From a virus (Duplodnaviria > Heunggongvirae > Uroviricota > Caudoviricetes): DNA of 64,000 nucleotides. The notes under the pieces are model-generated. The model worked only from the letters and a program-made list of their open reading frames with translations. It had not been told where the DNA came from and did no database searches. This document shows positions 44,687 through 47,598 of the stretch, one piece after another. Positions within the stretch are counted from its first letter, which is position 1, and every line of letters starts with the position of its first letter. The stretch is from IMG/VR virus record IMGVR_UViG_3300040781_000350. One strand, written 5' to 3'. The translations under genes and the position numbers were made by a program.

Positions 44687-44701
44687 CGGAATTTCAAAAC
44701 A

Positions 44702-44717
44702 GGAACACATTTATAAT
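44702..44717 (+). promoter_or_regulatory. GGAAC-class promoter of the suppressor tRNA/pth2 unit
   Basis: GGAAC ACATT TATAAT. Confidence 0.7.
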
Positions 44718-44729
44718 AAGGTATGAAAC

Positions 44730-44806
44730 GCATTAATAGTTCAGTTGGCAGAACGGGCGCCTCTAAAACGCTGTCGTCGCGGGTTCGAGTCCCGCTTAAT
44801 GCACCA
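44730..44806 (+). tRNA. amber suppressor tRNA (CUA)
   Basis: perfect 7-bp acceptor, D-arm GTTC/GAAC, loop CTCTAAA, T-arm, A73, CCA. Confidence 0.88.
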
Positions 44807-44949
44807 TTTTTGACAGGTAAGCCGGTGATGAAACATTATCTTCAACTTAAAAATGAAGATGGTACACCAAACGGTAAATATTTGGTAATATCTGATAACG
44901 TTTATCAGAAGATACTTGAAGCAGTAACATAAAATAATAAATAAATACA

Positions 44950-45312
44950 ATGACATAGAAAAATATATACGCAGTGGTTCGACATGACCTTAATATGTCC
45001 GCAGGTAAGATCGCTTCTCAAGCAGGTCATGCCTATTTAGATTCATATCTAAAAAATCCTGATACAGAGTATCTAAACAATCCAACTAAGATTTGCCTAG
45101 GAGCAAATGAAACAGAGTTGGAGAAAGTATGCCATAAATGTGAGATGCTTGACATCCCGCATTCCAAAATTATTGATCCAGACTTTACAATTGCTGGAAA
45201 CAACGTAATTCGCAACGAGAACAACCAAGAACCAGCATTTACTGCAGTAGGCATCGGTCCTATTGCTAAGCAAGATGTAAAACGAGTTCTTAGCAACCTC
45301 AAACTACTTTAA
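44950..45312 (+). CDS. pth2: peptidyl-tRNA hydrolase type 2, with in-frame TAG at codon 3
   Basis: VVRHDLNMSAGKIASQAGHA and TAVGIGP motifs; ATG ACA TAG AAA AAT ATA TAC GCA GTG is in frame with the tracked GTG 44974. Confidence 0.85.
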
Positions 45313-45313
45313 T

Positions 45314-45346
45314 ATGACATAGAATAATAGATACAAACCTCCATAA
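45314..45346 (+). CDS. mini-ORF M-T-amber-N-N-R-Y-K-P-P-ochre
   Basis: ATG ACA TAG AAT AAT AGA TAC AAA CCT CCA TAA, starting 1 nt after the pth2 stop. Confidence 0.55.
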
Positions 45347-45406
45347 TCGTTAATTGTCTTGGAAACTAAACAAAAACAATACAATTAAAAAACAAAAGGA
45401 AACAAA

Positions 45407-45736
45407 ATGATTAACGAAAATATGAAAGAAACAGTCGAAAGACTAACAAACGATAACGCACTCGACTTTGGAAGCAAAGAAGAGTATCTAACCTGGAGAA
45501 AGAATTGGAAAGAACGATTTAATCGAACTTCTCAAATTATTCGAAAGTTGAAGAATGATCGCAAGGTCGTTCACTTCGATCCAAATATCAAACTAACAAA
45601 GGAAGATGAGGCTTATATCAAAGACCACATCACAACTTATAGCTGGGATCGAATTGAATCTGCACAAGCAAAAGTCAGACATATGATTTGTGAGCTTATT
45701 GCAGCACGAGAAATCTATAAAAAGAAAATTGCTTAA
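45407..45736 (+). CDS. hypothetical protein
   Basis: 109 aa, EYLTWRKNWKERF motif. Confidence 0.7.
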   Translation: MINENMKETVERLTNDNALDFGSKEEYLTWRKNWKERFNRTSQIIRKLKNDRKVVHFDPNIKLTKEDEAYIKDHITTYSWDRIESAQAKVRHMICELIAAREIYKKKIA

Positions 45737-45739
45737 GAT

Positions 45740-45773
45740 AAAGGGGCTGTAGTCAATCTGCAGCCCCTTTCCT
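45740..45773 (+). terminator. rho-independent terminator
   Basis: AAAGGGGCTGTAG-TCAAT-CTGCAGCCCCTTT. Confidence 0.8.
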
Positions 45774-45800
45774 TTACAGGAACAATGTTATAATACGAAT

Positions 45801-47249: not shown

Positions 47250-47598
47250 GGGGGTGACCAGGAATCGATTTGATGACATTGTCTACCCTATGCAAGCAGG
47301 AGTGATATCCTCCTTAACAATATCAAATTACTAATTGGCGAAAATCAATTAATGGCTGCGTAATTGTAGCCCCTCAAAACTAGAGATACCTGATATCTAG
47401 GAGTAGGGGTCGACTATCAGGCACCTGATCATTACAGGTTAAAGAAATGATGATTGGTTTGCGAGCTAAAAGAAATTCGTAGGACACCCGATAGTCCAAA
47501 CACGGGAGTAGATTGCTATTTACGAAGAAAATAGCTAAGCTTGTGAACGATTAGGATGACAAACATGAAAGACGCGAGTTCGAATCTCGCCACCTCCA
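47250..47598 (+). ncRNA. ssrA: tmRNA, tag (A)GENQLMAA
   Basis: GGGGGTG acceptor with G3:U70, tag ORF 47337-47363 ending GCT GCG TAA, 3' T-arm GCGAG-TTCGAAT-CTCGC. Confidence 0.93.

Follow-up and report, generated by a model that had tools for sequence, protein, structure and literature searches.

A conserved amber-containing mini-ORF downstream of a phage peptidyl-tRNA hydrolase gene as a proposed stop-codon-gated leader peptide

Why would a phage that uses the standard genetic code keep a ten-codon mini-gene, interrupted by an in-frame UAG and ending in Pro-Pro-stop, immediately behind its peptidyl-tRNA hydrolase gene? To address this question, we examined a 64,000-nt stretch of a 221-kb tailed phage genome (hereafter, the window; IMG/VR record IMGVR_UViG_3300040781_000350), in which the stop codon of pth2 at 45310-45312 is followed by a single T and then by a mini-ORF at 45314-45346 (+) reading M-T-amber-N-N-R-Y-K-P-P-stop, with the amber at 45320-45322, the Pro-Pro codons at 45338-45343, and the final stop at 45344-45346. 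The original prediction, that this mini-ORF lies 1 nt after the pth2 stop and that its first 21 nt match the pth2 start (44950-44970) at 19 of 21 positions, is correct. The degenerate 21-mer occurs only at these two places in the window, where 0.03 matches are expected and none of 100 shuffles gave two, while the flanks on either side show no similarity (they were compared by eye, as a MAFFT alignment misaligned the two neighborhoods). The 9-mer ATGACATAG alone is not significant (0.86 expected), though in the whole genome it occurs only at these two sites, and the amber-plus-Pro-Pro-stop mini-ORF pattern occurs only once on both strands.

The mini-ORF sits in a tRNA island in which ARAGORN finds 39 tRNAs and a tmRNA across the window. 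Immediately upstream of the module and co-oriented with it is a tRNA with anticodon CUA, which reads UAG (44730-44806, +; 56 bits against the Rfam tRNA model), separated from pth2 by a 34-codon ORF (44828-44932) whose conservation was not examined. The phage genome is not TAG-recoded as in genetic code 15: under the standard code it yields 344 ORFs of at least 100 aa, 64 of which end in TAG, meaning that the CUA tRNA has few targets. The upstream gene (44950-45312, +) matches the Pfam PTH2 model (PF01981) at 67.4 bits against a cut-off of 23 (E = 1.6e-18) and carries an in-frame UAG as codon 3 (44956-44958), with the conserved first beta-strand lying between the TAG and the first GTG. Among 80 distinct phage Pth2 loci, 74 have an in-frame TAG just before that strand, preceded by Thr in 63 and followed by a purine in all 74, and 60 of these 74 have no alternative start codon in between. 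The ATG-ACA-TAG-A shared by the two window sites is therefore a recurring gate and not merely a repeat. In three Pth2 loci (L067, L070, and L074; L-numbers denote related loci retrieved here), the ORF that overlaps the pth2 stop reads M-T-D-T-P-T-amber and then continues for many codons, representing another Thr-TAG gate in a different downstream gene, and in relative L001 a third copy of ATGACATAG, of unknown meaning, lies at 2836-2844 between the -35-like and -10-like boxes upstream of the CUA tRNA.

We next asked whether the mini-ORF is conserved. No close relatives of the region were found in the annotated phage collection, which returned only tRNA-sized DNA hits and Pth2 hits at 29-36% identity in Sinorhizobium and Agrobacterium phages. 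Single-protein scans of viral contigs with Pth2 or with the downstream gene product returned nothing, a word-indexed homologue search with the latter found only itself, and an alignment of the window-type downstream proteins found nothing in viral contigs. Other routes were productive, however. Pth2 relatives at 43-77% identity (L001, L002, L003, L145, L147) all have the mini-ORF directly after the pth2 stop, as do L038 and L149 at about 39-43% identity. A DNA pattern scan of viral contigs gave 16 hits, of which four (L097, L102, L111, L109) were accepted; the others had no CUA tRNA called nearby, or were not checked, and showed no Pth2-like context or context like that of the downstream gene, and were treated as chance. 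Each of the four sits in a tRNA cluster with the mini-ORF upstream of a small gene of the same kind as the one downstream in the window; L097, L102, and L111 also have a Pth2-like gene and a CUA tRNA called nearby, and a CUA tRNA is called in the contig of L109. In total, 33 distinct phage loci, including the window, carry the same device, consisting of a UAG at codon 2-9 (usually 3), at least five further codons, and then x-Pro-Pro-stop, located 40-95 nt upstream of a small gene of unknown function that we refer to as gene X. For three further contigs, only gene layouts were examined; Pth2-to-gene-X gaps of 91 and 95 nt are compatible with a leader but were not counted.

In the window, gene X (45407-45736, +) begins 60 nt after the mini-ORF and encodes a 109-aa protein with no Pfam or PHROG family above cut-off (only sub-threshold hits). 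It is a conserved neighbor of phage Pth2, and in L102 (4131-4685, - strand) gene X is fused in one frame to a Pth2-like domain, while in L111 the two genes overlap, suggesting that gene X and the hydrolase work together. The presence of a short ORF ending Pro-Pro-stop upstream of homologues of the 45407 protein had been named in advance as the test of a leader function, and it was borne out: relatives of the 45407 protein (L001, L003, L150, and more distantly L038, L145, L149) carry an upstream short ORF with an in-frame TAG that ends Pro-Pro-stop. To avoid ascertainment by the leader itself, an alignment of three such small genes, forming a second group of syntenic genes, was used to retrieve 32 loci (28 distinct, 25 of them not seeds) by protein similarity alone. 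Of these 25, 21 have a canonical leader 40-95 nt upstream, and the other four (L117, L130, L134, L135) have amber-containing short ORFs without a terminal Pro-Pro-stop. A profile of the 45407 protein found a small family of 35 representatives, and the one new member for which DNA was examined (L150) again has a leader, ending I-P-P-stop, 1 nt after the pth2 stop.

These comparisons bear directly on the alternative offered in the original prediction, that the mini-ORF is a duplication left by insertion of pth2. In its favor are the 19/21 identity, including 9 matches among the 11 nt that follow the shared 10-nt gate (estimated p of about 0.003 by chance), and the resemblance of the L038 mini-ORF to the first codons of its own gene X, suggesting that such leaders may well arise by local duplication of a gene start. 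The 19/21 match may likewise reflect how the amber gate was copied in this lineage. As the full explanation, however, a passive scar fails and is very unlikely: the device occurs upstream of gene X where no pth2 precedes it (L102, L111, L109), which also rules out the idea that the leader always follows pth2; beyond the first 9-10 nt the two copies are not alike in L001, L002, L003, or L038; Pro-Pro-stop and the frame are kept across Pth2 proteins only 39% identical, with synonymous codon changes; and the segment after the leader stop covaries with the downstream start site. Duplication may therefore describe the birth of the leader but not its present state. Presence of the leader is polymorphic among closely related Pth2 loci, as L148 (1842-2159) and L076 manage without it, gene X there overlapping the pth2 stop directly (ATGA), whereas L038 (1507-1630) carries the leader plus a spacer of about 90 nt.

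The mini-ORF is conserved as a peptide. Across the 33 distinct leaders, the first Pro codon is CCT in 18, CCA in 12, and CCG in 3, and the second is CCA in 13, CCC in 12, CCT in 5, and CCG in 3, such that Pro-Pro is invariant while both third positions vary. L038 has CCA CCG where the window has CCT CCA, L001 changes ACA to ACG and AAA to AAG, all of these being synonymous, and length differences are multiples of 3. The residue before Pro-Pro is K in 23, R in 4, G in 3, I in 2, and E in 1 (Lys-Pro-Pro-stop at 45335-45346 in the window), and the final stop is TAA in 29, TGA in 2, and TAG in 2. One amber is present in 29 leaders and two in 4, with a purine following the TAG in 37 of 37 (A in the window), and there are never fewer than 5 codons between the last amber and the final stop, and exactly 5 in 21 of 33. 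Two ambers are found in leaders such as L118, L119, L121, and L122; in L121 and L122 a first Pro-Pro-TAG is followed by V-R-G-P-P-TAG, so that the final stop is itself a UAG. A CUA tRNA lies on the same strand within 1.5 kb of the leader in at least 25 of the 30 loci checked.

Initiation signals are also present. Of the 33 leaders, 24 have a Shine-Dalgarno (SD) site and 14 abut the stop of an upstream ORF; the four without an SD, including the window, all abut the pth2 stop, and the window mini-ORF is thus probably started by ribosomes finishing pth2. In many loci of the second gene-X group (L116:1306-1401, L123:1315-1395, L128:1323-1401, L133:1311-1394, L136:1321-1399), a tRNA gene with an abnormal, enlarged or A-rich anticodon loop ends 15-20 nt before the leader ATG. 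ARAGORN calls these Phe(aaa), a 4-base 'taaa' anticodon, or Ser(gga), and they score 38-51 bits against the Rfam tRNA model; they may be processing signals that set the 5' end of the leader mRNA, or unusual decoders.

How might translation of the mini-ORF be connected to gene X? Folding of each locus from the leader stop to the first codons of the downstream gene predicted a long-range helix whose 5' arm starts -3 to +4 nt from the end of the leader stop and whose 3' arm covers the SD and/or start codon. In the window, 45347-45357, beginning at the first base after the leader stop, pairs with 45407-45417, the AUG and codons 2-4 of gene X, and this is both the MFE and centroid structure (-9.7 kcal/mol, z = -3.80, 1 of 200 shuffles as good). 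This pairing explains the short motif conserved after the stop in the window, L001, and L003, which is the reverse complement of the start of gene X. The same pairing is found in L001 (13 perfect pairs, z = -4.22) and L003, with a compensatory U-A to A-U change between those two. Across 30 loci, cognate duplexes (23 nt starting at the stop codon against positions -18 to +13 of the start) average -11.7 kcal/mol, compared to -6.5 kcal/mol for swapped partners (permutation p <= 5e-5), and the cognate partner ranks first in 16 of 30 rows. The window helix is, however, A-U/G-U rich and modest, and it hides the AUG but not the SD-like AAGGA (45396-45400, 6 nt before the ATG), which is predicted to be unpaired (P = 0.96). 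A competing hairpin with a mid-spacer segment exists; 5 of 326 start regions in the same genome, which should include gene X's own, pair with the 5' arm at least as well; and some family members have weak or no predicted helices (L126, L141, and L149 in the simple duplex test, the pairing segments of L149 lying inside the leader's last codons, and L150 with z = -1.66). A conserved helix, together with the resemblance of CCUCC in the window to an anti-SD sequence, could suggest an element acting only as RNA structure or as a protein or sRNA binding site, with an incidental reading frame. This is very unlikely, given that the Pro codons vary at their third positions, so that CCUCC is not kept and the anti-SD idea is rejected, that frame and ATG are kept, that SD sites or stop-start coupling precede the ATG, that the mini-ORF itself is predicted unpaired, and that no Rfam family was found in the leader or spacer.

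Taken together, these data support the interpretation in the original prediction, namely a leader or sensor peptide coupling suppression and stalling to expression of the 45407 gene, with the helix giving the coupling a physical basis. We favor, with reasonable confidence, a model in which translation of gene X depends on read-through of UAG by the phage's own CUA tRNA. In this view, ribosomes finishing the amber-gated pth2 restart at the ATG 1 nt downstream, and if release factor wins at codon 3 the ribosome leaves at least 21 nt before the helix, which stays closed and hides the start codon of gene X. If the CUA tRNA reads the UAG, the ribosome would run seven more codons to Lys-Pro-Pro-stop, the proposed arrest site, where termination is slow. 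From established ribosome geometry, mRNA is covered to about 12-13 nt beyond the first base of the A-site codon; a ribosome held at the UAG would therefore end at least 5 nt short of the helix, with which the minimum spacing of five codons is consistent, while one with the final stop in the A site would cover about 10 nt after it, corresponding to the 5' arm, freeing the start region for initiation. Our analysis establishes the sequence anatomy, the peptide-level conservation of amber and Pro-Pro-stop, the covarying helix, the linkage to gene X and to CUA tRNAs, and the initiation signals, whereas suppression, stalling, footprint geometry, and direction of control are inferred. There are no experimental data of any kind, including ribosome occupancy, neither stalling nor arrest-dependent induction was assayed here, and we had no information on the host or its release-factor and EF-P properties. 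Also counting against the model are the four gene-X loci whose amber-containing short ORFs lack a terminal Pro-Pro-stop and the close relatives L148 and L076, which manage without the leader. Lys-Pro-Pro is not a proven arrest motif, but a C-terminal Pro-Pro arrests termination in all contexts tested in E. coli (PMC3834316), and arrest at Pro-stop with the stop in the A site has been demonstrated for bacterial uORFs, as has arrest-dependent opening of an SD stem for secDF2 (PMC10987492). The phage does encode a tmRNA (47250-47598; tag GENQLMAA) 1.9 kb downstream in the same tRNA island, and a link to Pro-Pro-stop stalling is possible, but the suggestion that tmRNA tagging contributes was not examined.

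Two other readings of a translated leader were considered. It is possible, though unlikely, that the leader senses proline supply or EF-P rather than termination, with ribosomes pausing on the Pro codons when Pro-tRNA or EF-P is limiting, for example when tRNAs are trapped as peptidyl-tRNA, and the pause opening the helix in the manner of classical attenuation while the amber serves as a second, independent gate. Pro-Pro is invariant and mostly preceded by Lys or Arg, the regulated operon always includes a peptidyl-tRNA hydrolase-like gene, and a ribosome paused on the second Pro codon would still cover part of the 5' arm; yet Pro-Pro sits directly before the stop in 33 of 33 canonical leaders, which points to termination rather than elongation, and only two variants place it internally (L130, L134). 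Without suppression, the element is AUG ACA UAG, which fits the form of the lambda bar minigenes (AUG AUA UAA; PMC8012679), toxic when Pth is limiting, and peptidyl-tRNAs shorter than about 7 residues drop off readily (PMC8012679); its main effect could then be drop-off that creates the substrate for the neighboring hydrolase or drains a host tRNA, and the element always travels with a Pth2-type gene. We consider this unlikely as the main role. Codon 2 varies across the family (Thr, His, Asn, Tyr, Leu, Ser, Arg), so no particular tRNA is targeted, the amber can sit as late as codon 9, and the reading does not explain the conserved Pro-Pro-stop, the spacing, or the helix, the conserved features lying downstream of the stop; trapping of a tRNA was not measured, and membership in the bar type was left undecided.

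The proposed device can be compared with several described systems. As in SecM-secA, MifM-yidC2, and uDF_RQH-secDF2 (PMC10987492), a short upstream ORF with a stall site (here only proposed) at its 3' end precedes a stem that hides the next gene's SD or start, with the 5' arm lying under the stalled ribosome so that stalling switches the next gene on; those leaders, however, are 90-170 residues long, carry export signals, and are released by the pulling force of the Sec/YidC machinery, whereas this one is 8-15 codons, lacks such a signal, and would take read-through of an internal UAG by a phage tRNA as its input. Pro-Pro or Pro directly before the stop, with stalling when the stop is in the A site, is shared with YbeL-PP (PMC3834316), an engineered model, and with the uDF_NAP-stop and uA_NSP-stop uORFs (PMC10987492), long Bacteroidota leaders without an internal stop codon. 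The RAPP/RGPP arrest peptides (ApdA, ApdP, SecM RAGP; PMC10951233), defined by R-A/G-P-P and arrest before peptide-bond formation to the second Pro, also have a Pro-Pro-containing C-terminal motif, often preceded by a basic residue, but the window leader ends R-Y-K-P-P-stop and lacks this motif, only 3 of 33 leaders have Gly before Pro-Pro, and only L121 and L122 have R-G-P-P. Code 15, crAss-like, and other gut phages encode a CUA tRNA proposed to time gene expression (bioRxiv 10.1101/2021.08.26.457843; PMC9523058), but there TAG is recoded in many, mainly late, genes, while here only the pth2 start and this leader carry the gate. Synthetic switches with an amber codon placed in the trp or tna leader peptide (PMC6412442) follow the same logic, in that suppressor-dependent translation beyond the UAG turns on the downstream gene, although these are engineered, act on transcription through a rut site or terminator, and use an orthogonal tRNA/synthetase pair, whereas the phage device is natural and would act on translation initiation. 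Full-text searches found no published description of a natural example.

Many large phages that use the standard code carry a UAG-reading tRNA whose targets were unknown, and the XacN1 authors looked for targets and found none (PMC5852040); this leader and the amber at the pth2 start give that tRNA defined, conserved targets. The mechanism, directly testable on a 110-nt fragment, combines an internal stop codon, a Pro-Pro termination pause, and a start-site-hiding helix into an input not described for natural leader peptides, namely the activity of a suppressor tRNA relative to release factor, and could serve as a compact reporter of read-through. A more speculative and rather unlikely possibility, though one of considerable interest if true, is that the leader senses whether UAG read-through is currently active in the infected cell and restricts a rescue module (Pth2 plus its partner gene X, fused in some phages) to that state. 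This would imply that standard-code phages with orphan CUA tRNAs deliberately switch on cell-wide read-through, damaging termination of host genes, and would then need their own peptidyl-tRNA hydrolase module, and perhaps the phage tmRNA, to clear the resulting stalled complexes and peptidyl-tRNAs.

Finally, a GC-rich hairpin followed by a T-rich tail at 45743-45776 (+), read directly from the sequence, is a probable terminator closing the tRNA-pth2-leader-gene X unit; weak sub-threshold Rfam sRNA hits cover it, while a promoter/terminator consensus scan did not list it, though that scan was not above the shuffle expectation and was not used. A repeated promoter-like motif (ACAGGAACA, a few bases, then TATAAT) precedes the CUA tRNA at 44690-44722 and appears again at 45775-45800 with its TATAAT box only 7 nt before the ATG of the 45801 ORF, which may be translated from a leaderless mRNA.
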